DNA of 64,000 nt from Centroscyllium fabricii (lineage: Eukaryota), in contig JBNRSN020000005.1 in assembly GCA_051313645.2 (NCBI GenBank), positions 77,810,001 through 77,874,000 of the forward strand, written 5' to 3'. The notes under the pieces were generated by a model. The model saw nothing but the letters and a program-made list of their open reading frames with translations, did no database searches and had not been told where the DNA came from. This document shows, in pieces, positions 801 through 59,157 of this stretch (position 1 is its first letter; the number at the start of each line of letters is the position of its first letter). A program made the translations under genes and the position numbers.

Positions 801-1388
801 TGGTTGGAATCATACCTAGCGCAAAGGAAGTTGGTTGTGGTTGTTGGAGGTCATTCATCTCAACCACAGGACATCACTGCAAGAGTTCCTCAGGACAGTG
901 TCCTAGGCCCAACCATCTTCAGCTGTTTCATCAATGACCTTCCCTCCATCATAAGGTCAGAAGTGGGGATGTTTGCTGATGATTGCACACTGTTCAGCAC
1001 CATTCGAGACTCGTCAGATACTGACGCAGTCTGTGTCCATATGCAGCAAGACCTGGATAACATTCAGACTTGGGCTGACAAGTGGCAAGTAACATTCGCA
1101 CCACACAAGTGCCAGGCAATGACCATCTCCAACAAGCGAGGCTCGAACCATCTCCCCTTGACATTCAATGGCATTATCATCGCTGAATCTCCCACTATCA
1201 ACATCCTGGGGGTTACCATTGATCGGAAACTGAACTGGACCAGCCATATAAATACTGTGGCTACAAGAGCAGGCCAGAGCTGGGAATTCTGCGGCGAGTG
1301 TCTCACCTCCTGACTCCCCAAAGCCTTTCCACCATCTACAAGGCACAAGTCAGGAGTGTGATGGAATACTCTCCACTTGCCTGGATAG
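801..1388 (+). mobile_element. Second CR1-clade LINE RT fragment (different subfamily), abutting the truncated Gypsy end
   Basis: WLESYLAQRK...VPQDSVLGPTIF...MFADDCT...W..KWQVTFAPHKC; same family as 9645-10250 and 32191-33030. Confidence 0.85.
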
Positions 1389-4300
1389 CGTCGGGGGCCC
1401 CGGTGTGTGTGCGTATGTAGGCCAGTAATCAGTGGATGTTGATCGATATGTAGGCCAGTGTTCGGTAGATGGTGGCTGGTCGGGCTGAGGCTCGACCAGA
1501 GGTTCTGCTCTAGAGCTCCCGGCGAGCGCTAGGTCTCTGATGGAAACTGTGTCCTCGCCGCCGTCCGGGAACTGCACGTAGGCATACTGCGGGTTGGCGA
1601 GCAGCAGCTGCACCTTTTCCACCAGGGGGTCGGTCTTATGGCCGCGGACATGTTTCCTAAGTAAGACCGGCCCCGGCGTCGTGAGCCACGGTGGGAGTGC
1701 TGTCCCCGAAGTCGACTTCCTGGGGAAGGAAAATAATAGGTCGTAAGGTGTAGCATTTGTAGCCGTGCACAGCAGAGAGTGAATGGAGTGGAGCGCGTCT
1801 GGGAGGACTGCCTGCCAACGGGACACTGGAAGGCCTCTGGACTTCAGGGCCAGGTTGACCGCCTTCCAGATGATCCCGTTCTCCCTTTCTACCTGGCCGT
1901 TCCCCCGGGGGTTGTAACTGGTCGTTCTGCTTGAGGCAACGCCTTTCTGAAGCAGAAACTGACGCAGTTCGTCGCTCATGAATGACGACCCCTGGTCGCT
2001 ATGGATGTAGCTGGGGAGACCGAAAATGGCAAACTGCATGGTGAAGTGTCTTATCACAGTTGCGCTCGTCATATCTGGGCAGGGGAAGGCGAAGGGGAAG
2101 CGGGAGAACTCGTCCACGACCGTGAGGAAGTACGAGTTGCGGTCGGTGGAAGGGAGGGGGCCTTTGAAGTCCACGCTCAGACGTTCAAAGGGGCGGGTGG
2201 CCTTGATGATGTACGCTGTGTCTGGCCTGTAAAATTGGAGTTTGCACTCGGTGCAGACAGTGCACTCTCGGGTCATAGCCTTGATCTCCGTGATGTAGTA
2301 GGGGAGGCTACGGGACGTAACGAAATGGGCGAGTCTGGTGACACCCGGGTGGCACAGGCTATCGTGGAGGGCCTTCAGCCGGTCCAGCTGGGCGCTGGCG
2401 CACGTTCCCCGGGACAATGCGTCCGGGGGTTCGTTGAGTTTGCCTGGGCGGTAAAGAATGTCGTACTCGTAAGTCGAGAGTTCGATCCGCCACCGCAGGA
2501 TCTTATCATTCTTGATTTTACCCTTTTATTTATTGTAAAACATAAACGCGACTGACCGTTGGTCGGTGAGCAGGATAAAATGCTTACCGGCCAGGTAATG
2601 ACGCCAGTAGCGCACTGCCTCCACGATGGCCTGGGCCTCCTTTTCCACTGCTGAGTGGCAAGTTTCGGGTCCCTGTAGGGTGCGGGAGAAAAACGCTACG
2701 GGCCTGCCCACCTGATTCAAGGTGGCGGCCAGGGCGAAGTCCGAAGCGTCACTCTCCACCTGGAAATGGATGGACTCATCAACGGCGTGCATGGTCGCCT
2801 TGATGATATCTTCCTTAATCAGGGCGAATGCCATTTGGGCTTCTACCGAGAAGGGGAAGACGTCAGCCTTGAGGAGCGGTCTGGCCTTATCCGCGAACTG
2901 GGGGACCCATTGTGCGTAATAGGAGAAAAATCCCAGACAAAATCCCAGACATCTCCTCAGGGCTTTGGGGTTGTGAGGAAGGGGCAGTTCCTGTAAGGGG
3001 CGCATACACTGTGGGTCAGGGCCGAGGACCCCGTTTTCCACCACGTATCCGAGGATTGCGAGCTGATCTGTACTAAAGATGCACTTGTCTTTATTGTATG
3101 TGAGATCGAGCCGTTTCGCCGTGTGGAGAAATTTTGCAAGGTTGGCATCGTGGTCCTGCTGGTCATGGCCGCAGATGGTCACGTTGTCCAGGTAGGGAAA
3201 GGTGGCCTGCAACCCGTTCTGGTCAACCATACGGTCCATCTCCCTTTGCAATACCGACACCCCGTTGGTCACGCCGAAGGGGACCCGGAGGAAGTGGTAG
3301 AGCCGACCGTTCGCCTCGAAGGCGGTGTACTGGCGGTCTGATTTCCTGATTGGGAGTTGGTGATACGCCGACTTAAGGTCGATTGTCGAAAAGACCGAAT
3401 ACTGGGCAATCTGGTTAACCATGCGGGGAAGCGGGTAGGCATCGAGACCGGTGTAGCGGTTAATTGTCTGTCTGTAATCGATCACCATCCGTAATTTCTC
3501 GCCAGTCTTAACCACTATGACCTGGGCCCGCCAGGGGTTGGTGCTGGCCTCAATTATCCCCTCCTGCAGCATACGCCCGACTTCTGACCTGATAAATGCC
3601 CGGTCCCCTGCACTGTAACGCCGACTCTTGGTAGCAATAGGTTTGCAGTTGGGGTCGAGGTTGGCGAACAGCGAGGGGGGGTTGACTTTCAGGGTGGATA
3701 GGCCGCAAGTCGGGCTCCGCTTCAGGAAGGGATTTTCCCGGCTACTGACGGTGAGGGGGGCCAGGGTCCCGCCGAACTCCATTGTCACGCTCTTCAGGTG
3801 GCACTGGAAATCCAGTCCCAGTAAGACTGGGACGAACAACTGCTGGAGTATGTACAGTTTAAAATTGCGGTACACGCAGTCCCTGACCGTGAGCGTGACG
3901 GAGCAGTAGCCGGTGACGTCCGCCGTGTGGGACTTTGAAGCAAGGGAGATTTGGTAGCGCATGGGCAGGGTCCGCAGTGCGTAGCGCTGCACTGTGTCAG
4001 GGTGGATGAAGCTCTCTGTGCTTCCGGTGTCGAACAGACAGTTGGTAACGTGACCGTCCACTTTAATCCCCATCATGGAATTTGATAGGGTGTGCGGCCT
4101 AGCCTGGTCGACAATGGCTGAGGCCGAAGTGTGTGTGTGTGTGTAGGGGCCCTCCGCTAGCTGGGGCCATGCACAAGATGGCGGCGCCCGTGGTTCGTAT
4201 GCAGCCAACCGCGGTGGACAAGATGGCGGTGCTGGGGGGTCGTACATGGCTGGCCGCGGGATACAAGATGGCGGCGCCATGGAGTCGCACGCAGCCGACC

Positions 4301-5558
4301 GCGGTGGACAAGATGGCGGCGCCGGGGAGTCGCTCATGGCTGGCCGCTGGGAACAAGATGGCGGTGCCGGGGAGTTGCACATGGCTGGCTGCTGGGGACA
4401 AGATGGCGGCGCCCGTGATTCGCACGCGGCGGACCGCGGTGGACGAGATGGCGGCGCCCGTGGTTCGCATGCGGTGGACCGCGGTGGACGAGGTGGCAGT
4501 GCCCGTGGTTCGCACGCAGCGGACCGCGCTGGGCGAGGTGGCGGTGCCCGTGGTTCGCACGCAGCGGACCGCGCTGGGCGAGGTGGCGGCTTTGGGGGGT
4601 CGCACATGGCTGGCCACGGCTGCCATTGGCATGGCGGTGCCCGTGCCGTGCGCGCGGCCGGCCTCTGCCGTGCAGGGATGGGAGACAGAGGCACCTGTGG
4701 TTTACCCCCGGACCGCTGCTGGGTCGCGCTGCAACAGCAGTTTACCTTAGGCCATGGGATGGCGTTGGAGCTCTCGCAGGCCGCGCTGTTGGATCTGGAG
4801 CTGGGCGCTGGGGCCGATTTGGAGGCCCTGGCGTAGTGTCCTTTCTTGCCGCATCTCTCGCAGGTCGCGCTCTTCGCGGGGCATTTCGCTCGCGGGTGTT
4901 GTCCCTGGCCGCAGAAGTAGCATCTACGCTCCGACGGCGTCTTCGCAGCTGCCGCTGCCATCGTGGGGTCCTCGACCTGTCGTGGGGCCGCCCAGGGATC
5001 GAGGGTATCGTGTGGGCCTTGGCCGCCATACGCCTCTAGTTTGCGGCGCGCTCCGTCCACTGCGTTGGAGATGGAGATCGCCTCCTCCAGTGATAGAGTG
5101 TCCTTTTCCAATAACCGCTGACGGGCCTGGTTGGACCTGATTCCTGCCACGTATGCGTCCCGTACGAGGAGATTCATCTCCTCCTGCGCCGTTCGTGGCT
5201 GGCAGTCACATGCCCGAGCGAGGGCTTGAAGCGCCAACAGATATTGTTCGTTCGACTCACCAAGCCGCTGTTGTCTGGTCGCCAGGACGTGTCTGGCATA
5301 GACCGAGTGGACCGGGCGCAAGTAGCATTCCTTCAGCTTCTTCACCGCCTCTGTGTACGTCGTGAGGCCGCGGATGAAGGAGTACACACGGCTACTGATT
5401 CTGGACGAGAGGACGTGTAGTTTGTCCCCGTCGCTCATCGCCTTTGCGGCCTCCATGTAGGCCTCGACAAGGCTGAACCAATGTTCAAAAGTGTTGGCGG
5501 CGGCTGGTTCCTGTGGATTGATATCCAATTTTTCGGGTTTCACAGCGCCACTCTCCAT
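1389..5558 (-). pseudogene. G1 gag-pol polyprotein with one in-frame stop at 2526-2528
   Basis: Zinc knuckles CYFCGQGQHPRAKC and CERCGKKGH; protease LFDTGS; RT VPFGV and YLDNV; RNase H ESDAS/EKE/TDQ; integrase HHCC and D,D,E. ORFs 2526..5558 and 1350..2417 are in the same frame, and the TAA sits where G3 has Gln. A 12-bp duplication gives CLGFCLGF. Confidence 0.93.
4174..4640 (-). repeat. 45-bp coding minisatellite (~10 copies, 15-aa Pro/Cys/Ala unit) between nucleocapsid and protease
   Basis: CAAGATGGCGG-like core recurs at 4174, 4219, 4264, 4309, 4354, 4399, 4444, 4489, 4534, 4579. Confidence 0.95.
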
Positions 5559-5580
5559 TTCAAAATTAAGTTATTAAAAT

Positions 5581-5872
5581 TGACGTATCGTCAATAATAC
5601 AAAGACGAGTAGTTACCTTAACTATAGGCTTTTAATAACTTAAAGATGGAGCTAGTCTCCAGTTGAACATCAGGTACAGAATGACTGGGGGCAGGGCGGA
5701 CCTCACCTATAAGGCTCCCACCTGAGGGGAGGAGTTAGAGGTGTGGCTGACCTGACCTTACAACCGTGTTCTACATCTCATACCTTCAATGCACCAAGCA
5801 ACTATATACATGGGTCATGTGGTGCAGTACAATTACAATCCAACTATATACAATGGTAATATGATTACCACA
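5581..5872 (-). repeat. 5' LTR of G1 (292 bp)
   Basis: Minus strand TGTGGTAA...GATACGTCA; TATA-like CTTATAGG, ATTAAA signal; central and 3' parts similar to the LTRs at 35581 and 37279. Confidence 0.92.
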
Positions 5873-13545: not shown

Positions 13546-14434
13546 CTCAACTGATTTCCATAAACTCTCACTTTTCAGGAAAGGTCACTAAATAACAATC
13601 AGGTGTAGCATTCCTGGCTGATTTTCCTCCTGTTCAGTACATGGACACTGAAACTAATTATAGCATCATAAGCTCCTGCAGTACTAAACTGGGAATAAAA
13701 ACCTGGGCTTTCTGGTCCATATACTGGGGGCATTCCTTATTGACTGAGCTTTAGTTTTACTTTTTATTTGTGGGTAATATATCTATTTGTTGCTATTGTT
13801 ACTGTATAAGAGATTTTTTAACACTGTTACGAATCTCTTTCCAAAGCCCGTTAAAAGAAAGCCTACAGCCAGGAATTCTACCACAGTTTGGATTCAGCCA
13901 AAGATGGGAATCCTGCTTATGAAATGAAGACAATAATGCACTGTGAAGGGTGAATTAGCCAATGTATGTGGAATGTTTGATTTTTTTTCCCATTAAAAAA
14001 ACTTTGTTGCATTGAATTGTCCATTTTTTATTTCACTACAATGCAGTGAAGTTATTAAGTATGTTTATTGACTAAAATATCTCTACTAGGTTAACTAATT
14101 TCTATGTAAGATTTTTTTTCAGCCAATCAATGTGGTTTTTTTCCTAAATGTTGTAGTGGTAGGCATTTGTATCTTTATTTCAGTGCACATTTCTTCATGC
14201 ACTTTGTCAGAAATGAGCATATTTTCAATTTATTTATGGTAAAACTTTTATTCCTGGTGTGATGGCTCCCAAATAGGTGTATTGCCATGATGCACAGCAT
14301 TAACATTATTTAGCAAAGGCTAGTTTGTGAATGTGCATTTAAAGATTCAACCTATGAGCCAGCTTATGTTTATTTACTGATTCTTACTCTCGCTCTGCAT
14401 TGACTTGTCTATGCTCAGATAGTGCTCAAACTAG

Positions 14435-14692
14435 TGTGGTAAACCACTGTATTACCACTGTACTGTATATACTGTGTGATAAGCTCACTGCATGTAACCT
14501 GTCTGGACATGCCCTCTGCTGGCCCCACCTGTGTCTCCTCCCCCGGACCCAGGTATAAAGGTGACTGTTCCCCAACCCCCCTTCAGTCTCGGACCAGTCA
14601 CTCAGCAGAAAGGCATGCTTCCTTCTTAGTGAATAGAAGCCTATCTGTTCTTCGCATAACTTCTAGTCTTTGGAGTTATTGATAGTGTATCA
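14435..14692 (+). mobile_element. Solo LTR of the same Gypsy lineage as G1-G3 (258 bp)
   Basis: TGTGGTAA...TATCA; TATAAA at ~14555; AATAGAAGCC...GTCTTTG...TTGATAGTGTATCA; flanks ACTAG/ATTAG (5-bp TSD, 1 mismatch). Confidence 0.85.
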
Positions 14693-15009
14693 ATTAGTAC
14701 CTTTCGTTAATTTACCCCCATCTATAACCCTTATGCAATAATTATGTTATGTATTCTACTTGTCACAGGATGGATTCCTCTTTAAGGAATTCCCCTTTAA
14801 ATTCTGGTGCCTTTCCCTTTAAGCATTGAAAATACCTCGTTTACGAGTGCAATACACCTGTTTGTATCTCGTTGATTGTTTTATGCATTAAGGGGACTGA
14901 GCTAATTACTCATTAGTTTGATAAGTATTTAAGCATTGGGTTAGCAAGAGGACATTGCCGGATCATTAGCAACAACTTAGCAACAACTAGGACACACAGA
15001 GGTGCTGTT

Positions 15010-26668: not shown

Positions 26669-27168
26669 CAAGTAAATCGCTGTTTCACCTGGAAGGAGTG
26701 TTTAGGGCCCTGGACAGTGGGAAGGGAGGAGGTAAAAGGGCAGGTGCTGCATCTCCTGCGCTTGCACAGGAAGGTGCTGGGCAAAGGTGAAGGGATGTTT
26801 TGGGTGATTGAGGAGTATTTTGAATACCATTCACAGTACATCAAGTTCATTATAGTTCAGCATGTAACAAAATAATGATACAGATCTCCAAAGACAACCT
26901 AGGCATTCATTTACTGCACATCGACACAATTGGATTTGAAGATTTACAAGTCTATTTCACTTTTTTTTTTACTCATTAAGGCCCTGTCACACCTTGACGT
27001 TTTAGCCAGCGTATGCAAATTTGGCTAAAACGCTGAACTTTCGACGTTTTTTTCAGTTCTGGCCGTATAATAGCGTATTCATAACGAGTTGGACGTATGC
27101 ATAACGTATTAGTAACGTACACAGAACGTATCGATAACTTTATACCAACTTATACCAACGAATGCTTA

Positions 27169-27732
27169 AGGCCCTGTCACACCTAGACGTTTTAGCCAGC
27201 ATATGCAAATTTGGCTAAAACGCTGGGTTACGTCGGATACGTTATGGGTACGTTATGCATACGTTAAGAGCACGCTGGCATACGCTGGCCATAAGTTGCA
27301 TACGTCGTTGTACTTCGAGTAAGTCGAGAAATTTTGAGCATGCACAAAATTTCTCCACGTATCTTGCGTATGATTCACACGTTCCGCATACGCTGGCCAT
27401 ACGTTGTAGGCACGTTAGGCGATCGTTGACACACGTCGACACACGTTACTTGTAAGTTATTCATAAGTCAAAAGACGTCGAGATAATTTCTAAGCGTACC
27501 CGGAACTTATTTCTAACCTATGAGTAACGTGCTTTGAACCTATGTGTAACGTATCTCCAACGCATATTTACGACCACAGAACTTACTGAACGTGTTTGCT
27601 ACCGTATAATACGTTATGCATATACGTCCAACTCGTTATGAATACGCTATTAAACGCCCAAAGTTCAGCGTAACCCAGCGTTTTAGCCAAATTTGCATAT
27701 GCTGGCTAAAACGTCTAGGTGTGACAGGGCCT
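27169..27732 (-). mobile_element. 564-bp MITE of the same family nested, inverted, in the parent element
   Basis: Perfect long TIRs AGGCCCTGTCACACCTAGACG...; body is the reverse complement of the parent's two ends; flanks TTA/TCA. Confidence 0.93.
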
Positions 27733-27972
27733 TCAGCGTGTTGTCGGCGTTCACAACTTATGCCCAACGATAGTCTAACTTATGCATAGCGCGCGGCAGC
27801 GTTTCGCCGACAATCACGTGGCGTAGCCTATTCAAAGGCTGTCATTGGACGATTAAAATCATACCACTAGACATCGAAGTGCAGCTCCACCCACCCAAAC
27901 TGATTCCAGTTCTACATCAAAATCTGCCTTGACAAGTCTGTTTTTTTGCCAAGTCTCTACAACATCACCATC

Positions 27973-29365
27973 ATGCCTAGGAAAAGTTCAAAGAATGCTG
28001 CCAGGAAGTCTCCTGGCCGTGGCCGTGGGCGCGGACGCATGGAGGATCCATCACCCACACCCTTCCCATCACGCTCACCCTCTGACGGAGAGGATGCTGG
28101 TTCCAACGCCTCTCGGGCATCGTCGGTGGCTGCGTCCGTGGCCTCCACCTCCTCTCAGCCAACCCTTGCGAAGAAGAGGGCCAAGAAGACACAGTTTTGT
28201 CTTTCTGTTGAAGAGGAGCAGCTGATGTGCGATTTCCTTTTCGAGAACGCCATCCTCTGGGACATTAAAAAGACAGACTACCGGAGGGTGGACAAGAAGG
28301 GAAAGCTCTGGGAGGATCAGGCAAAGGACATGGGGAAGACTGTGGAGCACCTTCAAGGGTGGTTCAAGTCCCTGCGAGACACCCACACCCGTCTCCACAA
28401 GAAGAAGAGCGGTGATGGCGCCCCGGAACTGACAGAGAGGGAGCAGTGGGTGAAGGCAAAGTTCGGCTTCCTCAGGACTGTGGTCCGCCATCGTGCTGAG
28501 CCCGTCCACAGTGTAAGTATAAACACATATTAATATCCATAATAATATTTATTTATATTAGTTTTACTGTACTTTGCCTCGTATTTTTGCATTGTATTTT
28601 ACTAATCAATTGTCATAATTGCAGGTAAAGGAAACCATTGCAGCACACAGCGGGGACCTCGAGGCTGGCGAGGCTGCCTGTGCAGAGATGGTGTTGGACA
28701 GCACACCCTCCCCTGTCCCCAGGGGGAAGCGTGGCCAGGACGATGACCAGCTGCAGTCACTCCAGAAGAGGGTGCACGAGTCTGGGGAGCTCCTCAAAAA
28801 TCTCGCACAGCCTCAGCCCATCACAACCACCTCAGCCTTCGCCAACTACGTGCGTGACAGCCTGGTCAGCATGTCCATGCGCAACTTCCGGAAGGCAAGG
28901 TTGCGCATCAACACCATCCTCACTGAGCTGATGGAGGAGGACACTGAGGAAGAAACCCCCATTTACGTGCGATCACCTTCAGCACCAGCTACCTACACCC
29001 CCACGGCATCGGCAATGTACCAGCAACATCCCCACAGGTGGAGACACACGGCACCGGCTGCGTCAGTCTGTGGACCGTACATGCAGCAGCCACAGTACCA
29101 GCAGATGATGCCACAGTACCAGCAGATGATGCCTCCTCCCCCTCAGCATGTGTTCCAACATCCTCCTCCTCTGATGATGCAGCAGCCAAGCCTCGCCTCT
29201 TCATCTGCTGCTATAGGCTCGGCTGGCCAGGTACTGAGCCATAGCCAAAGCACCTTCGACACTAGCGATATCTTCAATATCTCTGGATTCAACATTTCCA
29301 GCAGTCCTAATGCTGCAAGTAGCCCGCCTGGGGAGCTGAAGACACCTCCACCATCAGGGCACTGA
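27973..29365 (+). CDS. MADF (Myb/SANT-like) + BESS-like DNA-binding protein, 2 exons (27973-28512, 28625-29365), 426 aa
   Basis: MADF pattern LMCDFLFENAILWDIKKTDYRRVDKKGKLWEDQAKDMGKTVEHLQGWFKSLRDTHTR; BESS-like AFANYVRDSLVSMSMRNFRKARLRINTIL; phase-0 GTAAGT...ACTAAT...TTGCAG intron of 112 bp; AATAAA overlapping the stop. Confidence 0.9.
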
Positions 29366-29540: not shown

Positions 29541-30699
29541 GACCATTGTTATCATGTTTAATTATTTAATAAAAGTTGAGCAAACTCTTGATGTTTGTTG
29601 ATGTTATTGTTTTAATATTTAAATCATAAACAATAATTAACAATAATAAATTCATACACTTTGGAAAAGGTATAATAATATAATGTACATGTATATTGAA
29701 AAGTGGATAATTGAAAAAAAGGCTTTTTAATCAGGAGCTGTAAGTTCTGTGGTCGTCCGGAAGACGTCAAATACGTCAATATGCGTTGGAGATACGTTAC
29801 ACATAGGTTCAAAGCACGTTACTCATAGGTTAAAAATAAGTTCCGGGTACGCTAGACATTATCTCGACGTATTTTGACTTATGACTAACTTACTAGTAAC
29901 GTGTGTCGACGTGTGTGAACGATCGCCTAACGTGCTTACAACGTATGGCCAGCGTATGCGGAATGTGTGAATCATACGCAGGATACGTCGAGATTTTTTG
30001 TGCATGCTCAAAAATTCTCGACTTACTCGAAGTACAACGACGTATGCAACTTATGGCCAGCGTATGCCAGCGTGCTCTTAACGTATACAAAACGTACCCA
30101 TAACGTATCCGACGTAAACCAGCGTTTTAGCCAAATTTACATACGCTGGCTAAAACGTCAAGGTGTGACAGCCCCTTTAGATTTTGATAAATCTGTTAAG
30201 TCTAGTAATAACGAGACATCAAATACACAGTAACTTCTGCTTAGTCCAGTAAACATTACTGCTGGCGCCTTTTGTCTTTCATAATACCTTGGGGTGAAAT
30301 TCCTTCCATTAATAATTTTATTGAAATCGCCACCTTCAGTATGCAATTTCATACTTTGTACTCATGCCAACTTTTTCAGTACAATTATTGACAGGAGGAA
30401 TTTCACATACACCTTTCTTCTGGAATTTGAACATAAAAATAAGGGTACAACAATACTGACTTGAATAGTAGACAGTGTGGATATGCTGGTGAGATTTGAT
30501 AGGAAGATATAATCACAATAAATGGTACATTGGTCTGGACTGCCAATAGTGATAATCTAAAATGCCCTGAAAATGCCCTTAAAACAAGTTTCCCAAACAG
30601 CTCTACAATAACAAACTAACTTTTTAAACGTTTTATTTTTGTTCTGTGCTGTGTGGCCCAGTTGCACTGGAACCTGTAGGCCTTCATCTGAGAAAGATT

Positions 30700-35580: not shown

Positions 35581-37578
35581 TGTGGTAACCGTTATATGTA
35601 CTCTTTTACCACCATAATATTGTTGCCCAATATTAATCTGTATGTATAGCGGCCGGGTGCATGATACACTGCTTTGTATTGCGACACTGTCGCGGGGTCA
35701 GGTCAGCCACATCTCTAACTCCTCCCCTCAGGTGAGTGCCTTATAGGTGGGGTCTGACCTGCCCCCATCCATTCTGTACCTGATGTTCGATCGGAGCGTA
35801 GCTCCTTTGTAAGCTAATAAAAGCCTTTAGTTGAGGTAACTACGTGTCTTTGGTTTTATTAGACTATTGACGATACGTCCTGCGGTGGCGGATCGAGCTC
35901 TCGACTTACGCATACGACATTCTTTACCGACCAGGCAAACTCAATGAACCCCCGGACGCATTGTCCAGGGGAACGTGCGCCAGTGCCCAGCTAGACCGGC
36001 TGAAGGAACTCCATGATCGCCTCTGCCACCCGGGTATCACCAGACTCGCCCACTTCGTTAAATCCCGTAGCCTCCCCTACTCCATCACGGAGATCAAGGC
36101 TATGACCCAAGAGTGCCCTGTTTGCGCCGAGTGCAAACCCCAATTTTACAGGCCAGACACGGCGCACCTCATCAAGGCCACCCCCCCATTTGAACGTCTA
36201 AGCGTGGACTTCAAAGGCCCCCTCCGCTCCACCGACCGCAACTCGTACTTCCTCATGGTCGTAGACGAGTTCTCCCGCTTCCCTTTCGCCTTCCCCTGCC
36301 CAGATATGACGAACGCAACGGTGATCAAACACTTCACCACGCTGTTCGCCATTTTCGGTCTCCCCAGCTACATCCATAGCAACTGGGGATCGTCGTTCAT
36401 GAGCGACGAACTGCGTCAGTTTCTGCTTCAGAAAGGGATTGCCTCAAGCAGAACGACCAGTTACAACCCCCGGGGGAACGGCCAGGTAGAAAGGGAGAAC
36501 TGGATCATCTGGAAGGCGGTCAGCCTGGCCCTGAAGTCCAGAGGCCTTCCAGTGTCCCGTTGGCAGGCAGTCCTCCCAGATGCACTGCACTCGATCCGCT
36601 CTCTGTTGTGTACGGCTACCAACGCCACAGCTCACGATTTGCTCTTTTCCTTCCCCAGGAAGTCGACTTCGGGGACAGCCCTTCCACCATGGCTCACGAT
36701 GCCGGGGCCGGTCTTGCTTAGGAAGCATGTTCGTGGCCATAAGACTGACCCCCTGGTAGACAAGGTGCAGCTGCTGCATGCCAACCCGCAGTACGCGTAC
36801 GTTCAGTTCCCGGACGGGCGCGAGGACACCGTCTCCATCAGGGACCTAGCGCCCGCCGGGAGCACCACAGCAGAGCCCCTGGTCGAGCCTCAGCCCGTCC
36901 ACCCACTACATTTCGACCACTGGCTGATACACCATCCACAACCCACCGGAGGCTGGCCATTTCAAACATACACATCGGAGCCCCCGTCACTGCCAGCTGA
37001 GGACCAGGAACCGGACGACGAGCCGCAGGCACAGCAGCAACCGGAGGGCCCGGCCCCACCGCCACTACCAGCACCTACGGTACCGGCACCAGCGCCGCCG
37101 CCACTACCGGCACCAGCGCCGCCGACACTACCGACACCAGCGCCGCCGACACTGCAGACACCAGAGCCGCTGACAGAGACCCGGTGGTCCTCCAGACAGA
37201 CGCGACCGCCGGAGAAACTCATCATGAACTGTTCTGTCCATTCACCCCGCCGGACTTAATTTTCAAAGAAGGGGTGAATGTGGTAACCGTTATATGTACT
37301 TTTTTACCACCATAATATTGTTGCCCAATATTAATCTGTATGTATAGCGGCCGGGTGCATGATACACTGCTTTGTATTGCGACACTGTCGCGGGGTCAGG
37401 TCAGCCACACCTCTAACTCCTCCCCTCAGGTGAATGCCTTATAGGTGGGGTCTGACTTGCCCCCATCCATTCTGTACCTGATGTTCGATCGGAGCGTAGC
37501 TCCTTTGTAAGCTAATAAAAGCCTTTAGTTGAGGTAACTACGCGTCTTTGGTTTTATTAGACTATTGACGATACGTCA
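35581..37578 (+). mobile_element. Internally deleted Gypsy element G2: LTR-integrase-PPT-LTR (1998 bp)
   Basis: LTRs 35581-35879 and 37279-37578 (~5 substitutions in 300 bp); TSD CCTGT; PPT AAAGAAGGGG at ~37265; the 5' LTR joins directly to LRWRIELS at the end of RNase H. Confidence 0.96.
35961..37259 (+). CDS. G2 integrase open frame (HHCC zinc finger, catalytic core, Pro-rich tail); no native start codon
   Basis: H..LCHPG...C..C; VDFKG; HSNWG (second catalytic Asp changed to Asn; G1 has HSDQG); GQVERE. Confidence 0.8.
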   Translation: MSRGTCASAQLDRLKELHDRLCHPGITRLAHFVKSRSLPYSITEIKAMTQECPVCAECKPQFYRPDTAHLIKATPPFERLSVDFKGPLRSTDRNSYFLMVVDEFSRFPFAFPCPDMTNATVIKHFTTLFAIFGLPSYIHSNWGSSFMSDELRQFLLQKGIASSRTTSYNPRGNGQVERENWIIWKAVSLALKSRGLPVSRWQAVLPDALHSIRSLLCTATNATAHDLLFSFPRKSTSGTALPPWLTMPGPVLLRKHVRGHKTDPLVDKVQLLHANPQYAYVQFPDGREDTVSIRDLAPAGSTTAEPLVEPQPVHPLHFDHWLIHHPQPTGGWPFQTYTSEPPSLPAEDQEPDDEPQAQQQPEGPAPPPLPAPTVPAPAPPPLPAPAPPTLPTPAPPTLQTPEPLTETRWSSRQTRPPEKLIMNCSVHSPRRT

Positions 37579-38822: not shown

Positions 38823-41800
38823 TGAGATGCCTCAAATCAAAGACGGCAGCGAGTTCTTAAATAAGTGGCTTTTATTCACAAGGAACTGAACCGTGTCCCC
38901 GATGAGCCTGCCTGGAATGAGAGATAAGTGGGCGGAGCATTCTCCTTTATACTAGTACCCAGAGGCGGGGTCAGCCGGAACAGGTCCTTACAGAAATGTA
39001 GAGATATTAACAGATATATAACAAACACATTAAACAAAACTATATACAATAACCGTACAGTGTGATCCACACCAAAAGGTTCATCACATTCACACCTTCC
39101 TTAAAAAGAAGTCCAGCGGGGCGAATATCAGCACTGTGTTATTAGTCTTTGTGGAGGTTTAACAGTCCGATCAGATCGGCGAGGCAGTGTCGGTTCTGGT
39201 GAAGAAGCGGGAGTAGTCGTAATCGGAAAAGACGCTGACGGGGCTCCCGACGTGAACAGAGACTCCACCGGTGGAAGAGGTACCTCAGGCACAGGAAGAT
39301 CTGGTGGAGGTGTAGCAGCCGCCAAAAGAGTAGGCTGAGCAACATGATGAGCTCCGTCGTGCATCGGAAGTGATGAGGGCCCCGATGTAATGTGCGCAGG
39401 TGAATGAAAAGACGGCCCCTGCTGTGAAAATGTGACCTGGGAGGGCAAGGGCTCCGCCAACGACTCAAGAGTGAACGTCTCCAGCGGGCGCAAGGTCTCT
39501 AATCGAGACGGTATCCTCACGCCCGTCTGGGTACGCCACGTAGGCATACTGAGGGTTGGCATGCAGCAAGCGCACACGTTCGACAAGAGGGTCCGTCTTG
39601 TGTCCACGGACATGCCTTCTAAGCAAAACCAGCCCCGGGTTGGTAAGCCACGTCGGCAGAGACGTCCCCAAAGTTGATTTCCTAGGGAAAGAGAAGAGTT
39701 TCTCGTGAGGTGCGCAACCGGTGGCTGTGCACAAGAAGGAGCGGGTAGCGTGGAGCGCATCCTGGAGGACCTCCTGCCAATGAGAGGTTGGAAGGCCTTT
39801 GGATCGAAGGGCCAGGGTGATGGCCTTCCAGATGGTCCCATTATAACGTTCTACCTGACCGTTCCCCCGGGGGTTGTAACTGGTCGTTCTGCTCGAGGCA
39901 GCCCCCCTCACGAGCAGAAAATGACGCAGTTCGTCACTCATAAATGAGGACCCCGGTCGCTGTGTATGAAGCCGGGAAGGCCGAAAATGGCGAATAGCAT
40001 GATAAAATGCTTTATCACTGTTGCACTCGTCATATCTGGGCATGGGAATGCAAAAGGGAAACGGGAGAACTCGTCGACCACAGTGAGAATGTACGAGTTA
40101 CGGTTGGTAGAGGGGAGGGGACCTTTGAAGTCCACACTCAGGCACTCGAATGGGCGGGTGGCCTTGATGAGGTGCGCCCTGTCAGGCCTGTAAAACTGGG
40201 GCTTGCACTCAGCACAGACAGGGCACTCCTGCGTCATCGCCTTGATCTCCGCAATGGAATAAGGGAGATTGCGTGATTTGACGAAGTGAGCGAGCCTGGT
40301 GACCCCCGGGTGGCAGAGATTAGCGTGGAGGGTGTTCAGACTACCCGACTGGGCGCTGGCACACGTTCCTCAGGACAGGGCGTCCGGGGGATCGTAAAGC
40401 TTCCCTGGCCAGTACAGAATGTCGTACTCAAAAGCGGAGAGTTCGATCCGCCACCTGAGGATCTTGTCATTCTTGATTTTACCCCTCTGTTTATGGTGGA
40501 ACATAAACGCTACTGACCGCTGGTCAGTAAGAAGGGTAAATCGTTTACCGCCCAAATAGTGGCGCCAGTGGCGCACTGCTTCCACGATTGCTTGGGCCTC
40601 CTTTTCCACTGAAGAGTGGCGGACTTCAGGGCCCTGCAGGGTACGGGAGAAGAAAGCGACGGGCCTGCCTGCCTGGTTAAGGGTGGCGGCCAGGGCGAAG
40701 TCTGAGGCGCCGCTTTCGACGTGGAAGGGGAGAGACTCATCAATGGCGTGCATGGTTGCCTTGATGATGTCTTGCTTGATATGCGAAAAAGCAATTTGGG
40801 CCTCTAACGGGAGCGGGAAGGAGGTAGCCCTGAGTAGAGGCCGGGCCTTATCAGCATAATGGGGAACCCATTGTGCATAGTAAGAGAAAAAACCCAGGCA
40901 TCTCCTCAAAGCTTTGGGGGAGTGCGGTAGGGGCAGCTCCTGAAGGGGGTGCATACGTTCGGGGTCGGGGCCGAGGACCCCGTTCTCAACCACGTAGCCG
41001 AGGATAGCCGAGGATAGTGTTGAAAACGCACTTATCCTCATTGTAAGTGAGGTTCAGACGCTGGGCCGTACGGAGAAACCTGTCCAAATTGGCATCATGA
41101 TCTTGCTGGTCATGGCCGCAGATCGTGACATTGTCCAAATACGGGAATGTGGCCTGCAAATCATACTGGTCAACCATTCGGTCCATCTCTCGTTGGAAGA
41201 CCGAAACTCTGTTGGTAACTCCAAAGGGGACCCGGAGGAAGTGAAAAAGGCGCCCATTTGCCTCGAAGGCAGTGTATTTACGGTCCTCAGCTCTGATGGG
41301 GAGCTGGTGATAGACTGACTTAAGGTCGATGGTGGAGAAGACCTTATACTGGGCAATCTGATTGACCATGTCATTGATTCTAGGAAGCGGATAAGCGTCG
41401 AGCCCAGTGTAGCGGTTAATAGTCTGGTTATAGTCGATGACCATGCGCTGTTTGTCGCCAGACTTAACCACCACCACCTGGACCCGCCACGGGCTGTTAC
41501 TGGCCTCGATGATGCCCTCCCGCAACAACCGAGCAACCTCTGCCTTCATAAAGGTGCGGTCCCCCGCGCTGTATCGCCGACTCTTGGTTGCAATGGGCTT
41601 GCAGTCAGGGTCAAGGTTGACGAACAGCGAGGGGGGTCTATCTTCAAGGTAGACAGACCGCAAGGGGAGTGTGGTTGTAAGGCAGGGCAGTCGCGGCTGC
41701 TGACCGTGAGAGGAGGCAGGGGACCGCCGTATGCCATCGTCATGCTCTGCAGATTGCACTGGAAGTCCAGGCCAAGCAACACAGGGGCGCAGAGCTGTGG

Positions 41801-43860
41801 GAGGACGTACAGTTGAAAGTTGCGGTATGTCGTCCCCTTCACGGTAATAGTGACTGTACAGCAGCCGATGACGTCCACAGTCTGGGACTCGGAGGCGAGG
41901 GAGATTTTACGATGTGTGGGCTTAACCCTGAGGGAATAACGGCGCACCGTATCAGGGTGTATGAAGCTCTCCGTACTCCCAGTGTCGAACAGTCATCGGG
42001 TGAGGTGCCCCTTTACCCGGATGGGCATCATCGATGATATGAGAGACTGGTTGAGGGCTGTAGAGGCAAGTGTGGTGTGCGCGCTAGGGCCCTTGTGCAA
42101 TGCAGGGTTCGCGAGCGATGGCGGCTCCCGTGATTCGCACGCGGCGGGCCACGGTGGTGTTTCGGGCCGTTGGGAGGACCGCTAGGTGGGTCGCTGAGAA
42201 AGCCGTTGGGAGGACCGAAGGGCTCGTGGCGCGCAAGCACCAGAATGCTGAATTGCCCTGGAGTTGCCTGTTGCTGCTGCCAGGATCATTGGAATTTCTC
42301 CAGGGCTGCCTGTTGCTGCTGCTGCCTGCATCGGTAAGCTTGCCTTAAACAAAGATGGCCGCGCCCTGGGCTGGGGCGGGGCTGCTGCTGCCAGGAGGCG
42401 AATTGCCCGCATCCAAGATGGCGGTGTCATGTGACGGGGCGGGGCCGCTGCTGCCAGGATGCGAGTTGACCGCATCAAAGATGGCGGCGCCCTGTGCTGG
42501 GATGCTGCCGCTGCTGCCAGGATACCCGACGGCGCCCGCGTTTCACGCCGATTCAGCGAGGAAGAAGGTGCCCGCGCCCCCAAAGATGGCGGAGTGCGGG
42601 AAACGAGCGAGGAAGAAGATGCCCGCGCCCCCAAAGATGGCGGAGTGCGGGAAACAACGTTGGCAGGCCGCATCTGAGGCAAGGTAGGTGGCAATCATTC
42701 AGAGGGCCGCTGTTGGGGGGCGCTAGGTACCTGAGGCAACTCTGTGGCGTGGACATCGCAGGCTGCTGCCATTTTCCGTGCTGATTCCGGGGCTGATCGG
42801 CAGACCTTCGCAAAATGGCCCTTCTTGCCAATTTGGAGCAGGAAAATGCCTTCGCTGGGCTGGAGCTTCGTGGATGGTGTTTCTGGCCGCAAAAAAAACA
42901 TTTCGGAGGCGCTGGCTGTCCAGATGGTGCCGTGGCCGCCACGGTCGCCGTCGAGGGCGTCGAACACGAGTCCCAAGGCCCAGGGGAAACCGTGTGGGAG
43001 CCGTGCCCCGTGTACGAATCTAGGCTCCGGAGGGCCCCATCCACCGCGTTGGAAAGCTTCAGCGCCTCATTTAGGGATAAATTACCCTGCTCGAGCAGAC
43101 GGGTGTGGGCTGGGGCCGATCTGATGCCTGCCACGTAGGCATCGCAGACAAGGAGGTCCATGTGCTCCTGGGCGTTAACAGGGGCGCATCCGCAGCATTG
43201 AAGAGCCTCCAGGTACTCCTCTTTCGACTCACCATGCTGTTGCCGCCACGTGCCGAGTAGATGGCGAGCATAGACTGCGTTGACTGGCTGGAGATATCGA
43301 GCCTTCAGTAGCTCCATCGCTGCATCGTATTCCGTGGCGCTCTTAATTATGGAATACACTCTGCCACTCACGCAGGAGACCAGGACTCTTCTCTTGTGCG
43401 CGTCGCCGACTCCGGCCACGACAAGGTACGACTCGAAGCAGCTCAGCCAATGTTCAAAAACTTTCAACGCGTTCAGTGCCTGGGGGTTGAGGTCGAGAGT
43501 TTTTGGTTTTAGAACTGTCTTCCAACTCTCAGATGTTGCTGGCTGTTGATCTTCATTCTGCTGGCTCATTTTAAAAATCCTTGTGAATAAAATTGAGATG
43601 CCTCAAATCAAAGACGGCAGCGAGTTCTTAAATAAGTGGCTTTTATTCACAAGGAACTGAACCGTGTCCCCGATGAGCCTGCCTGGAATGAGAGATAAGT
43701 GGGTGGAGCATTCTCCTTTATACTAGTACCCAGAGGCGGGGTCAGCCGGTACAGGTCCTTACAGAAAAGGTACAGATATTAACAGATATATAACAAACAC
43801 ATTAAACAAAACTATATACAATAACCGTACAGTGTGAACCACACCAAAAGGTTCATCACA
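38823..43860 (-). mobile_element. Full-length but frameshifted Gypsy element G3
   Basis: LTRs 38823-39088 and 43594-43860; TSD AATAC; PPT at 39089-39105; gag ATG 43569; PR FDTGS, RT YLDNV, RNase H and INT in shifted frames. Confidence 0.96.
39128..43569 (-). pseudogene. G3 gag-pol, multiple frameshifts
   Basis: ORF pieces 42553..43569, 42182..42694, 41546..41947, 40986..41759, 40370..41041, 39938..40237, 39465..40043 and 39128..39841 tile the G1 polyprotein. Confidence 0.93.
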
Positions 43861-48420: not shown

Positions 48421-49422
48421 TGTGTCTCACAATGAGGTTATATTGTTTGTACCACGAGTAAACAGTTGATAACTAGGCACTGCAGTCAAGGCATCGGACA
48501 ACATCTTGAATAATGCTCTGCCGTGCAAAAGTTTTATAAATGTCAGTGCCTGTTTTGTGCCGTGTGTACTGTATTTCACTGTTGCATATGGGGCCGTGGT
48601 TGAAAACACCAGTGAAGAACCACACAAACATAGTAGGAATTTAGAGTTTTTAATTTTTCTGGCAACAAAGCTCTGGCCTATTTTAGGCCCAGGACAGGAT
48701 CACCTCCCCTTTCCAGACCCGACAGCCGGACGACTTTTCATCATGGGTCTTATTTCAGAATTCCATAAAGAACAAAGAAGGCTGTTTTCTCCCAGCACTG
48801 AGATATGAACAGTTTTAGTTTGAAGTTAACCTGTGTAATGGGGCAAATTATCCAGTCAGAGCAGGAGAGGAAAAGGAATGACATCAGCTTAATCTTTTCC
48901 ACATTTTCATTAATAACATGAAAACTGAGTCCTGTCATTAAAAAATGTGGAAGGTGTATTTAACTAATAATTTATTAATTGTATTAATTAGAGTCAATTT
49001 ACAAATTCAAATTGTGTTCGATTAAAATTAGACCTTTCTCTCCAGCTCTAAAATTTGTAACACAGCGGCTAATTTTTTCAAGTGATAGTGAAAGTTGTCG
49101 TTACAGATAGCAGACAGGATTTTCCATTGCCCATTAATTGGGGCACTTCCCCTGCCTGCCATGGAGATGTGCCCTTGCATTTTGATCAAATTTCCAGCCT
49201 TGAGATCATTTGTATTTTGAAGGCAGGCTCCCAGCCTGTGTGCTGCCTGCAACAATGACAATTTTTACAAAGAAAAAAAGACTTGCATTTACATAGCGCC
49301 TTTCATGACCACCGGATGTCTCAAAGCACTTTACAGCCAATGAAGTACTTTTTTTTCTGATTCCGCATTGGCCTGTGCCAGGCAACGGGCCTGAAGTTCG
49401 GTACCTGAGTGTCGGTTGTTAA

Positions 49423-49984
49423 AGGCCCTGTCACACCTAGACGTTTTAGCCAGCATATGCAAATTTGGCTAAAACGCTGGGTTACGCTGAACTTTGGGCG
49501 TTTAATAGCGTATTCATAACGAGTTGGACGTATGCATAACGTATTATACGGTAGCAAACACGTTCAGTAAGTTCTGTGGTCGTAAATATGCGTTGGAGAT
49601 ACGTTACACATAGGTTCAAAGCACGTTACTCATAGGTTAGAAATAAGTTCCGGGTACGCTTAGAAATTATCTCGACGTCTTTTGACTTATGAATAACTTA
49701 CAAGTAACGTGTGTCGACGTGTGTCAACGATCGCCTAACGTGCCTACAACGTATGGCCAGCGTATGCGGAACGTGTGAATCATACGCAAAATACGTGGAG
49801 AAATTTTGTGCATGCTCAAAATTTCTCGACTTACTCGAAGTACAACGACGTATGCAACTTATGGCCAGCGTATGCCAGCGTGCTCTTAACGTATGCATAA
49901 CGTACCCATAACGTATCCGACGTAACCCAGCGTTTTAGCCAAATTTGCATATGCTGGCTAAAACGTCTAGGTGTGACAGGGCCT
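49423..49984 (+). mobile_element. 562-bp MITE, near-identical inverted copy of 27169-27732, inside an older GGGCC-ended element (~49387-50616)
   Basis: Same TIRs; by eye one substitution and one 2-bp indel versus 27169-27732; flanks TAA/TCA. Confidence 0.95.
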
Positions 49985-50699
49985 TCAAGCCAGATTCATG
50001 GAAGAAATGGCGTCCACCTCGCTTCCCGCGCTGGACGCCATATTGGTGAGGGCAAGTAAAAGAGGTGTTGCTTACCTTTGTCTGAAACACGCATTGGGCT
50101 TTTAACATATTCAAATAAGGGGCCTAATGCCTGCTTCTACTACCTCTTACAAATTTGGCTTGCATCTGAGGCAGCCAGCACCAATGCTGACTGCCTCTGG
50201 GAAAACAAACGCTAAACAGCAGTGAATTAAAAAAAGTTAAGTATTTACAATTATCATCTCCAACCTTACCCCCGACTTCGGCCTCCAGGCCCTCTCCGAT
50301 CTTCCCCTAATTTTGAATCCACCTTCCAGACCTTCCCCCAATGCTGGCCCCGACCTCCCCAGGATCTTGGCCCTGACCCAACCTCCCACCCGATCCTAGC
50401 CCCGACCTACCTCCAAATCCTTGCCCCGACCCTCCTCCCGATGCTGACCCTCACCTCCAGGCCCACCCCCGAGTCCTTGCTCGATGTTCAGCACTGGGCT
50501 GAATGCCACAATAATGCTGATCAGCAGGCAGCACCAAAATAACGCTGCTGTCTGTGATCTTTTTACGGGCACGATCAAATCCTGCCCCCCCAGTGGCACC
50601 GCTTGTTTTTGGGCCTTATGGAATTTCTAAGCCAGCATTTCTTACGCTCTTGAGCAGGCCTGGCTACCAAAAGAAAAACTTCTTCAGCTCCTCCCCCAA

Positions 50700-53351: not shown

Positions 53352-53619
53352 GAAGTGAAGAGATGCATATAGGCACAGCATATATAGTCCGAGCACTGCC
53401 AGATGATTACAGGTAATCTTTCTAACTGCCCTTTATCACACCTCAGCAAAGAGATAATCACAGCAATCAGAGGTGTGAATGGTGTCCAAACAGGTCAGTC
53501 AGGAAAACATTACATCAAAGAACAATGAGGTGGGGGTCACAAGGTGACCCCCACCTCATTGTTCTTTGATGTAATGTTTTCCTGACTGACCTGTTTGGAC
53601 ACCATTCACACCTCTGATT

Positions 53620-56165: not shown

Positions 56166-57469
56166 AATTCTTCCTCATCTCTGTCCTCAATGGCCTACCC
56201 CTTATCCTTAGACTGTGCCCCCTGGTTCTGGACTCTCCGACCATCGGGAACATTCTTCCTGCATCTAGTTTGTCCAGACCTGTCGGAATTTTATAAGTTT
56301 CGATGAGATCTCCTCTCATTCTTCTAAATTCTAAATTACAGTGAGTATAAGCCTAATCGACCCAACCTCTCCTCATACGTTATTCCTGCCATCCCAATTC
56401 AATTCAATTCAATTCAAGTTTTATTGTCATTGCAGAGTACTAGTACAATACAACGAGACGAAGACTCGACGCTCCCGAGAGTAGTGCAAATAAATTACAT
56501 GCAAATTGCATACAGTAAAGTACATTATCAGGCGTGCAGGTACCGGAGTTTATTTTTAGAATTCAGCAGGCTGACAGCCCTGGGGAAGAAGCTGTTCTTA
56601 AATCTAGTCGTGCGGGTGCAAATTGATCTGTAGCGTCTCCTGGAGGGCAGGGGGGTGAACAGACTGTGGCTGGGGTGTGTGGGGTCTTTAATAATATTCG
56701 GAGACCTCCATAAGCAGCGTTTGAGGTAGATGCTTTCCATTGACGGTAGCTGGGGACCGGTGATTCGTTGGGCAGTTTTGACTACCCGCTGCAGGGTTTT
56801 CCAGTCTGAGATAGTGCAATTTCCATACCAGACTGTGATGCAGCTTGTCAGTATGCTTTCTATTGTGCAGCGGTAGAAGTTGGAGAGGATGCCGGATGAC
56901 AGCCTGGCTTTCTTCAGCTTCCTTAGGAAGTACAGGCGCTGTTGGGCCTTCTTAACCAGAGAGGAGGTGTTTAGTGACCAGGAGAGATCTTCCGAGATGT
57001 GGACCCCGAGGAACATGAAGCTGGACACCCTTTCCACCTCAGCCCCTTGGATGAAGATGGGGGTGTGTCTTCTGCTTCCAGTCCTCCGGAGGTCCACTAT
57101 GATCTCCTTAGTTTTCTTGGTGTTCAGTGCCAGGTTGTTGTCGGCACACCATCCCACAAGGCGCTGGATCTCATCCCTGTAGGCTGACTCGTCGTTATTG
57201 GTGATCTGGCCAACCACCGTGGTGTCATCCGCAAACTTGATGATCGTGTTGGAGCCATGGACAGCCGCACAGTCGTGAGTGAAGAGGGAGTAGAGGAGTG
57301 GGCTCAGCACACAACCTTGTGGGGCCCCCATGTTCAGGGTAAGTGGGGTGGGAGGTGAGGTTGCCTAACTTCACAGACTGTGGTCTGTTGGTTAGGAAGT
57401 CCAGGGTCCAGTTGCAGAGGGAGGTGTTCAGGCCGAGGGTGAGGAGTTTGTTAGACAATTTGCTCGGGA

Positions 57470-58670
57470 CGAGCGTGAGAGTGAGGAGTGGGAATCAGAG
57501 GTTGAGAGTGTGAGAGTGTGAGGAATGGGAATCAGAGTGTGAGAGTGTCAGAGTGAGGAATGGGAATCAGAGTGTGAGAGTGTGAGAGTGTGGAATGGGA
57601 ATCAGGGCGTGAGAGTGTGAGAGTGAGGAATGGGAATCAGAGCGTGAGAGTGTGAGAGTGAGGAATGGGAATCAGAGCGTGAGAGTGAGGAATGGGAATC
57701 AGAGCGTGAGAGTGTGAGAGTGAGGAATGGGAATCAGAGCATGAGAGTGTGAGAGAGTGGAATGGGAATCAGAGCGCGGCGTGTGAGAGTGAGGAATGGG
57801 AATCAGAGCGCGGTGTGAGAGTGAGGAATGGGAATCAGAGCGCGGTGTGAGAGTGAGGAATGGGAATCAGAGTGCGGTGTGTGAGAGTGAGGAATGGGAA
57901 TCAGAGCGTGAGAGTGTGAGAGTGAGGAATGGGAATGAGAGCGTGAGAGTGAGAGTGAGGAATGGGAATCAGAGCGTGAGAGTGTGAGAGTGAGGAATGG
58001 GAATCAGAGCGTGAGAGTGAGGAATGGGAATCAGAGCGTGAGAGTGTGAGAGTGAGGAATGGGAATCAGAGCGCGGTGTGAGAGTGAGGAATGGGAATTA
58101 GAGCGCGGTGTGAGAGTGAGGAATGGGAATCAGAGTGCGGTGTGTGAGAGTGAGGAATGGGAATCAGAGCGTGAGAGTGAGGAATGGGAATCAGAGCGTG
58201 AGAGTGTGAGAGTGAGGAATGGGAATCAGAGCGCGGTGTGAGAGTGAGGAATGGGAATTAGAGCGCGGTGTGAGAGTGAGGAATGGGAATCAGAGTGCGG
58301 TGTGTGAGAGTGAGGAATGGGAATCAGAGCGTGAGAGTTTGAGAGTGAGGAATGGGAATGAGAGCGTGAGAGTGTGAGAGTGAGGAATGGGAATCAGAGC
58401 GTGAGAGTGTGAGAGTGAGGAATGGGAATCACAGCGTGAGTGTGTGAGAGAGTGAGGAATGGGAATGAGAGCGTGAGAGTGTGAGAGAGTGAGGAATGGG
58501 AATGAGAGCGTGAGTGTGTGAGAGAGTGAGGAATGGGAATGAGAGCGTGAGAGTGTGAGAGTGAGGAATGGGAATCAGAGCGTGAGAGTGTGAGAGTGAG
58601 GAATGGGAATCAGAGCGTGAGAGTGTGAGAGTGAGGAATGGGAATCAGAGCGTGAGAGTGTGAGAGTGAG
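57470..58670 (+). repeat. Purine-rich minisatellite, ~27-37 bp unit GAGTGAGGAATGGGAATCAGAGCGTGAGAGTGTGA
   Basis: More than 30 tandem copies with variable GA/GT spacer. Confidence 0.97.
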
Positions 58671-59157
58671 GTTGAACAACCACCAAAAACTCCCATACCT
58701 ATTGGGGGAACAGAGGGACTGTATAAAACTGGCGGCAAAATACGTCACAGCTTGCCATAAGCAGAGGGACAACCAGTGACCATTGAAGCTAGGAAGAGCA
58801 TACAAGCTCTATATGCGGGTATATATGTATGTGTGTGCGTAGCTATTCATTCAATACGTCTGGTTATGCATTTGTATGTCCAATTGTATATGTTCTTTTT
58901 AGATCTATCTGCGGGTTTTTATGTGTATGTGTATGCATAGTTATTCATTCAATACGTCTGGTTATGCATTTGTATGTCCAACTGTATTAGATCTATATGC
59001 GGGTTTTTATGTGTATGTGTATGCATAGTTATTCATTCAATACGTCTAGTTATGCATTTGTATGTCCAACTGTATATGTTCTTTTTTGTGCTTTGGCAAC
59101 ATAGGATGTATCTTGTCATGCCAATAAAGCAATTTGAATTGAATTGAATTGAATTGA
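58671..59157 (+). mobile_element. 3' end of another non-LTR element (RTE-X-like) with a triplicated 3' UTR segment and (TTGAA)n tail
   Basis: C-terminus KLPYLLGEQRDCIKLAAKYVTACHKQR*; three ~90-100 bp repeats at 58810-59075; CAATAAAGC then (TTGAA)n. Clade name from recall only. Confidence 0.6.

Follow-up and report, generated by a model that had tools for sequence, protein, structure and literature searches.

The window analyzed here, a stretch of 64,000 nt from the 7.2-Gb genome of Centroscyllium fabricii, contains LTR retrotransposons whose leaders lack a tRNA site, which raises the question of which RNA primes their reverse transcription. The window holds three Gypsy-type elements (G1, G2 and G3), LINE fragments and one solo LTR, whose 3' end is the interval to which an earlier note drew attention; no tRNA genes were found in it. 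The closest named protein relatives come from sharks and rays (75-78%). We consider it likely that these LTRs belong to a Gypsy (Metaviridae) clade outside the chromoviruses in which the element's own RNA serves as primer for reverse transcription, and the best reading is Tf1-like self-priming by a capped fragment of ~52 nt that is paired at its 3' end only.

The solo LTR (14435-14692, forward strand; 258 bp, TG...CA) represents a fourth family and has the same length as both LTRs of its relative L101. Its 5-bp target-site duplication (14430-14434 and 14693-14697) shows one mismatch between the copies, and the A that follows the LTR belongs to this duplication, not to a leader. A TATA box leads to an initiator A at 14585 (14554-14585, forward strand), the probable transcription start as judged from motif spacing, 54 nt upstream of the predicted cut. 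The R stretch equivalent to the primer (14626-14638, forward strand) ends in the poly(A) hexamer, which is mutated here: AATAGAA is a change in this copy, and the full relatives L091, L092, L093 and L101 keep the family A. The complement of the solo-family R stretch is present in the leaders of the same four relatives. GTCTTTG (14666-14672, forward strand), a probable GU-rich downstream poly(A) element, and the U5-terminal hairpin that had been flagged earlier (14679-14692, forward strand) complete the LTR end.

G1 lies on the reverse strand. Its 5' LTR (5581-5872) carries its initiator A at 5682. The predicted cut lies 53 nt further on, between 5630 and 5629, where pairing ends, just 3' of a 14-nt self-primer 3' segment (5630-5643). 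The adjoining 5566-5580 comprise a one-base spacer (5580) and a putative primer-binding site (5579-5566) that has no TGG and is the perfect complement of 5643-5630. The gag-protease-RT-RNase H-integrase coding region (1350-5558) starts with an ATG just 22 nt past the LTR, has one in-frame stop (2526-2528) and is truncated at about 1390; the 3' LTR is lost. Between Gag and protease, a 45-bp repeat in about 13 copies (4083-4670) encodes a 15-residue repeat rich in Pro, Ala and Cys. G3, also on the reverse strand, has a 5' LTR at 43594-43860 with a 15-nt self-primer 3' segment at 43655-43641, followed by a spacer and primer-binding site (43578-43593) that is a 15-nt perfect complement of its own R stretch and differs in its letters from that of G1. 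Its polypurine tract (39100-39089) and 3' LTR together occupy 38823-39100, and the element has a 5-bp target-site duplication. G2 (35581-37578, forward strand) is an internally deleted copy with no leader remaining, in which one LTR (35581-35879) is fused to integrase sequence and a polypurine tract (37268-37278) precedes the other (37279-37578). Elsewhere in the window, we observed a palindrome (53465-53619) whose perfect arms of 76 bp are separated by 3 nt, a young repeat (27164-27733, 49422-49990 and 29774-30180) with two copies in opposite orientation that are 99% identical over 570 nt, an array with units of about 35 bp (57442-58706), and an open frame of 248 codons rich in Gln and Pro (28619-29365).

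The R-U5 motifs quoted in the earlier note were all found at the LTR ends (G1, 5643-5581, reverse strand; G2, 35816-35879 and 37514-37578, forward strand; G3, 43647-43594 and 38876-38823, reverse strand; solo LTR, 14632-14692, forward strand). The pattern hexamer-GCC-N15-40-GTCTTTG has 78,259 matches in the genome versus 2 for the reversed pattern used as a control, so that these motifs mark a very abundant family, far above chance. GTCTTTG is located 20-34 nt downstream of the hexamer and looks like a poly(A) downstream element, matching the GT-rich stretch which, together with a terminal inverted repeat, follows the hexamer in the LTR layout of animal Metaviridae according to the available text of PMC3601003. 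Its core, GTCTT, is present in 15/15 families of this genome versus 4/21 distant families. The proposed pairing of AAAGCC with GTCTTTG was rejected: it is missing from all seven predicted folds, and two invariant strings cannot co-vary. A search for a long-range partner of GTCTTTG in 11 elements gave scattered matches with no common position.

As for the terminal hairpin, said to co-vary among four families, it is real, but the G1 and G2 versions are identical, leaving three variants. It closes on the first base past the LTR, and its letters change between families of this genome while pairing is kept. Hairpins of 5-6 bp occur in all 15 of these families (2.6 expected), which are related and thus not independent counts, but in only 3 of 21 distant families (2.65 expected). 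The hairpin is limited to the families of this genome and stands at chance level in distant relatives, and it was rejected as a clade-wide feature. A leader, whose first base was suggested to extend the hairpin in the 5' copy, is kept only in G1 and G3; none is left in G2. Folding energy of the solo LTR end alone is no better than chance (z -0.04 versus shuffles); for the G1 LTR end with its leader, z is -2.1. No Rfam match was found across 14400-14800. A different small hairpin, starting at the RCC just past the predicted cut, has a wider spread than the terminal one, with at least 4 bp in 14/21 distant families (3.2 expected) and 9/15 families here (2.8 expected).

The notion of a structured module at the U5 edge tied to priming survives in part, in that a leader-dependent fold and a difference between 5' and 3' copies are predicted. 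A switch between a 3'-LTR fold and a 5'-LTR/leader fold is likewise predicted, but it is formed by a 13-15 bp helix between R and the leader rather than by AAAGCC and GTCTTTG, and the external primer duplex is replaced by a reading in which the R stretch itself is the primer. In G1 and G3, the gag ATG lies 22-24 nt past the LTR, no TGG is present, and a single spacer base separates the LTR from 14 (G1) or 15 (G3) bases that match the hexamer-ending R stretch exactly in reverse complement; that is, the leader from +2 to +14/15 complements this stretch, with letters that differ by family. In predicted folds of G1 and G3, the pairing probability of the hexamer is 0.87-1.0 with the leader and mostly 0.01-0.6 in 3' LTR contexts.

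Across this genome, 81 LTR-leader junctions were collected, not selected on a variant and with five duplicates removed. All 13 pairs are perfect in 63, one defect is found in 16 and two defects in 2; when the 27 near-identical G1 copies are excluded, 38 of 54 junctions are perfect. The fraction paired is 0.93 at pair 13 and falls to 0.41 at pair 14 and 0.26 at pair 15 (pairs 1-3 were fixed by the search pattern). Leaders are 16-47 nt long. A TGG, with which a tRNA site would start, follows the LTR in 0/81 junctions, compared with its presence in 5 loci with a readable LTR pair in a Mag-like control group of the same genome. Altogether, 15 different 13-mers were found, each matching its own R only. 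Within single copies, compensation at pair 11 was seen in 1/32 R variants and 1/30 leader variants, which are the same copy; since the 11 R variants whose 3' LTR could be read are all confined to the 5' LTR and arose after insertion, this comparison says little. At the same pair, the main family has 120 leader variants versus 55 R variants in mirror-image contexts, an excess that perhaps reflects error-prone copying of the primer. The G1 and G3 folds also pointed to another helix, one that would conceal the AUG, but it was rejected on own versus cross-family energies (-10.3 versus -9.6 here; -6.1 versus -6.7 in distant relatives).

The helix extends to distant relatives. A metagenome scan gave 78 loci, 37 of which have a usable gag start. 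Five others with gag matches were excluded: L121, L134, L166 and L168, in which the start was decayed, could not be located or lay too near the contig end, and L164, an additional copy with a 19-nt match. A perfect run of 11-19 nt from +2 is present in 31 of the 37; among the six misses, four have the helix with a single defect and in two the contig begins too close. Shuffled sequences reach a run of 11 in only 4/7,200 cases (L124, whose primer lies in the unshuffled part, was excluded from this null). In 32 family representatives, chosen for good pairing, 415/416 cells are Watson-Crick and none is G-U, versus 0/488 cross-family pairs of R and leader that match fully. The run nearly always stops before RCC. 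Two distant copies carry a variant in both LTRs, which is compensated in L149 and not in L119. It was also observed that pair 10 is G-C in 31/32 families though its neighbours vary, and that pairs 1-3 are almost always A-T, a pattern that could be a recognition code for the cutting enzyme.

The spacing of promoter motifs suggests that the paired bases are internal to the transcript: among the 15 families here, 12 have a TATA box 80-85 nt upstream of the point where the paired stretch ends, and 14 have an initiator A 49-57 nt upstream of that point, the distance predicted for G3 being 49 nt. This geometry was not seen in distant relatives. Transcription would thus begin at the initiator about 30 nt past the TATA box, a position that the genomic imprint described below supports. 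Transcript bases ~40-52, ending in the hexamer in this genome, would then pair with leader +2 to +14/15, in a predicted fold in which the helix is flanked by the small RCC hairpin and, here, by the U5-end hairpin. Cleavage would fall between ...AAA and RCC, with the RNase H of the element as the probable enzyme, as in Tf1, and the resulting capped fragment of ~52 nt would prime the minus strand at the one-base spacer. Plus-strand strong-stop synthesis would copy the primer and rebuild the binding site. With no tRNA modification to serve as a stop, synthesis may sometimes reach the cap or fold back on its own R; such run-on and fold-back products are found integrated, probably by this route. 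Where hexamer and primer overlap, the same helix would also mask the poly(A) signal of the 5' LTR, which is likely to be a second function.

A prediction was made first: if an RNA primer is copied, it should leave the LTR end followed by inverted R. The sequence of LTR end, spacer and inverted R continuing past the binding site was found 873 times across families versus 0 in the control; a count for the G3 family gave 90 junctions and one for the solo family gave five, which are all long, reaching to or near the LTR start; in one family, 17 junctions were found versus 0 for the mirror product. We examined 87 extensions, namely these 17 and 70 among the first 100 matches listed. Forty-one are short, 39 reach the LTR start and seven fall between, three of the latter being alignment breaks or locus-edge cuts, so that four real cases end between +14 and the LTR start. 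After merging copies with common downstream sequence, the 41 short extensions yield 35 independent ones. In 13 of these, the end falls between -1 and +2 relative to the initiator position that had been predicted beforehand (P about 2e-6 versus uniform), and 32 end at or before +2. These ends argue that synthesis, once past the binding site, went straight on to copy an RNA beginning at the initiator. Switching of the template to an intact RNA is another possible source of the start-site spike, but it requires plus-strand DNA ending in the binding site, which is itself the product of copying this primer. Plus-strand DNA folding back on its own R would account for the long class. Among 32 partial LTRs, ends did not accumulate at the predicted cut. 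Six copies (L299, L309, L324, L339, L341 and L355) have one primer-imprint junction in common and related downstream sequence, and it seems that one imprint product has multiplied into a lineage; a second such group is the pair L302 and L315.

The strongest alternative, which we nevertheless regard as improbable, is that the primer is the 3' copy of R, from the genome end and cut or trimmed after the hexamer, or a second RNA acting in trans. At least seven of the 87 extensions (L271, L286, L288, L289, L296, L330 and L340) run through U3 into the polypurine tract, as a 3' R primer would allow, and nine LTRs have an inverted U5 end inserted immediately after the hexamer. However, a 3' R primer gives no reason for the pile-up at the start site or for the scarcity of ends from +14 up to the LTR start, and the long class can also be obtained when a 52-nt copy folds back or jumps to the 3' R.

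It is somewhat less probable still that the helix solely hides the 5' poly(A) signal, a view close to the earlier note, while another RNA primes. The hexamer lies inside the paired stretch in 15/15 families here and 13/21 distant ones, it is predicted to be paired only with the leader, and the entire signal, including the GU-rich element, is within the 5' LTR. The other 8 of the 21 distant families, however, hold the helix without the hexamer, three of them with a hexamer downstream, and thus hiding the signal cannot be its sole job. Moreover, the helix always begins one base past the LTR, where a primer must sit, it contains no G-U pairs, and there is no room for a tRNA site.

A purely DNA-level origin of the inverted repeat and the extensions, by palindrome correction or plus-strand fold-back and with no RNA primer, is very improbable. 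Fold-back predicts extensions palindromic to the LTR start, which 39 of the 87 are, but no mirror product is found, a DNA template offers no border at the transcription start, where the short extensions end, and the element would still require a primer. Priming by a host small RNA or tRNA fragment, for which half-tRNA priming in some Copia lineages offers a precedent (available text of PMC6317226), is just as hard to sustain, given the family-specific 13-mers noted above and no foreign sequence after the site in the 87 products, although these were selected for R sequence.

The self-primed elements are assigned to Ty3/Gypsy on the basis of their gag-protease-RT-RNase H-integrase order, TG...CA LTRs, polypurine tract and target-site duplications (5 bp in 8/8 loci chosen for intact ends); the best solved relative is the Ty3 RT (E 3e-41). 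An integrase C-terminal chromodomain was found in 0/24 aligned relatives and not in the G2 integrase tail, and none is listed for 120 homologues, compared with 5/6 control elements of the same genome that have one. In an RT-RNase H tree, 39 YLDN-type rows fall on one side of a branch with support 100 and length 1.27, separate from the chromodomain-bearing and TGG-site elements of this genome. The tree is quick, unfinished and midpoint-rooted, and it lacks named references, so that an origin independent of Tf1/sushi is likely rather than established. Its group counts are unusable because L092, L096, L104, L255 and L257 gave nested-element RTs of another type; six loci with short RT matches or none were excluded. 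In its mode of action the clade resembles Tf1, without being a member of Tf1/sushi, and its protein homologues are found in sharks and rays, corals, anemones, nematodes and insects. In ESM Atlas, Gag falls only in generic Gag clusters. Among the named animal Gypsy clades (Cigr-1, MolGy and others), Cigr-1 is a possible lead. The catalytic motif of the G1 reverse transcriptase, as of most relatives, is YLDN rather than YxDD, and searches of available literature text and supplements gave no match for it. Three chromodomain-bearing elements of this genome (L253, L254 and L256) have a 7-11 nt leader complement 154-262 nt inside the LTR, a different geometry.

To our knowledge, self-priming has been demonstrated only in yeast Tf1 and predicted mainly for chromovirus kin and one plant Copia lineage. 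The HIV-1 poly(A) hairpin hides the 5' hexamer by base pairing with a partner within R; here the partner is the leader, at the 5' end only, and doubles as the primer site. According to the available text of PMC7175516 and PMC10085805, Tf1/Tf2 of Schizosaccharomyces pombe, Tj1 and Tf1/sushi elements have no tRNA site, and their binding site complements their own R. The Tf1 primer is made by cleavage and flanked by helices (PMC7175516, PMC10085805 and PMC11042837, as available) and consists of the first 11 bases (PMC7175516), and Tf1 cDNA often retains the copied binding site at its 3' end (PMC11042837). The elements described here resemble Tf1 in lacking a tRNA site and in having an R-complementary binding site, a presumably cleaved primer, flanking helices and a copied binding site. 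They differ in that the paired bases lie ~40-52 nt from the probable start, giving a primer of ~52 nt with a long unpaired 5' tail in place of one at the start of the RNA: the initiator, placed from sequence, is 49-57 nt before the cut, and extensions end there. In addition, the stretch and the poly(A) signal overlap, the spacer is one base and the leader just ~20 nt; there is no chromodomain, and the RT is far from those of the chromodomain-bearing elements of this genome.

Self-priming of plant TAR Copia and Tcn1 was predicted from complementarity (available text of PMC6317226); unlike the present elements, these belong to another superfamily or to the chromoviruses, and the evidence is prediction only. 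The hairpin at the U5 edge beside the primer site is reminiscent of the retroviral U5-IR stem, and the order of hexamer, GT-rich stretch and terminal inverted repeat recalls the animal Metaviridae layout in the available text of PMC3601003, but those systems are tRNA-primed and the U5 hairpin here is restricted to the families of this genome. The available literature ties self-priming to Tf1/sushi, Tcn1 and plant TAR Copia (PMC10085805, PMC7175516, PMC6317226, PMC4600332, PMC5341516 and PMC11042837; same scope in PMC3601003, PMC6934838, PMC6238403, PMC3670739 and PMC7472051). In its available text, we found no report of self-priming in an animal non-chromovirus Gypsy clade, for which Repbase and GyDB may hold prior annotation, nor of primer imprints at a start site.

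Taken in full, the proposal, to which we give a little better than even credence, is that self-priming arose in a widespread animal Gypsy clade independently of Tf1/sushi, with a long capped primer that has the poly(A) signal as its 3' end, that a single helix sets the primer and at the same time suppresses 5' polyadenylation, and that about 1% of genomic LTR ends record the primer, mapping the start to the base. Wherever annotation depends on finding a tRNA site, this clade will be overlooked or wrongly labelled. The imprint test makes primer identity and start site readable from genome sequence alone, and it is usable for any element without a tRNA site. Because tRNA-fragment silencing targets the tRNA site (available text of PMC7472051), the self-primed elements here may escape it. 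The clade is among the most abundant LTR families of a 7.2-Gb vertebrate genome and, if the reading is true, would represent a second Gypsy origin of self-priming with a different geometry, making the abandonment of tRNA a repeated solution.
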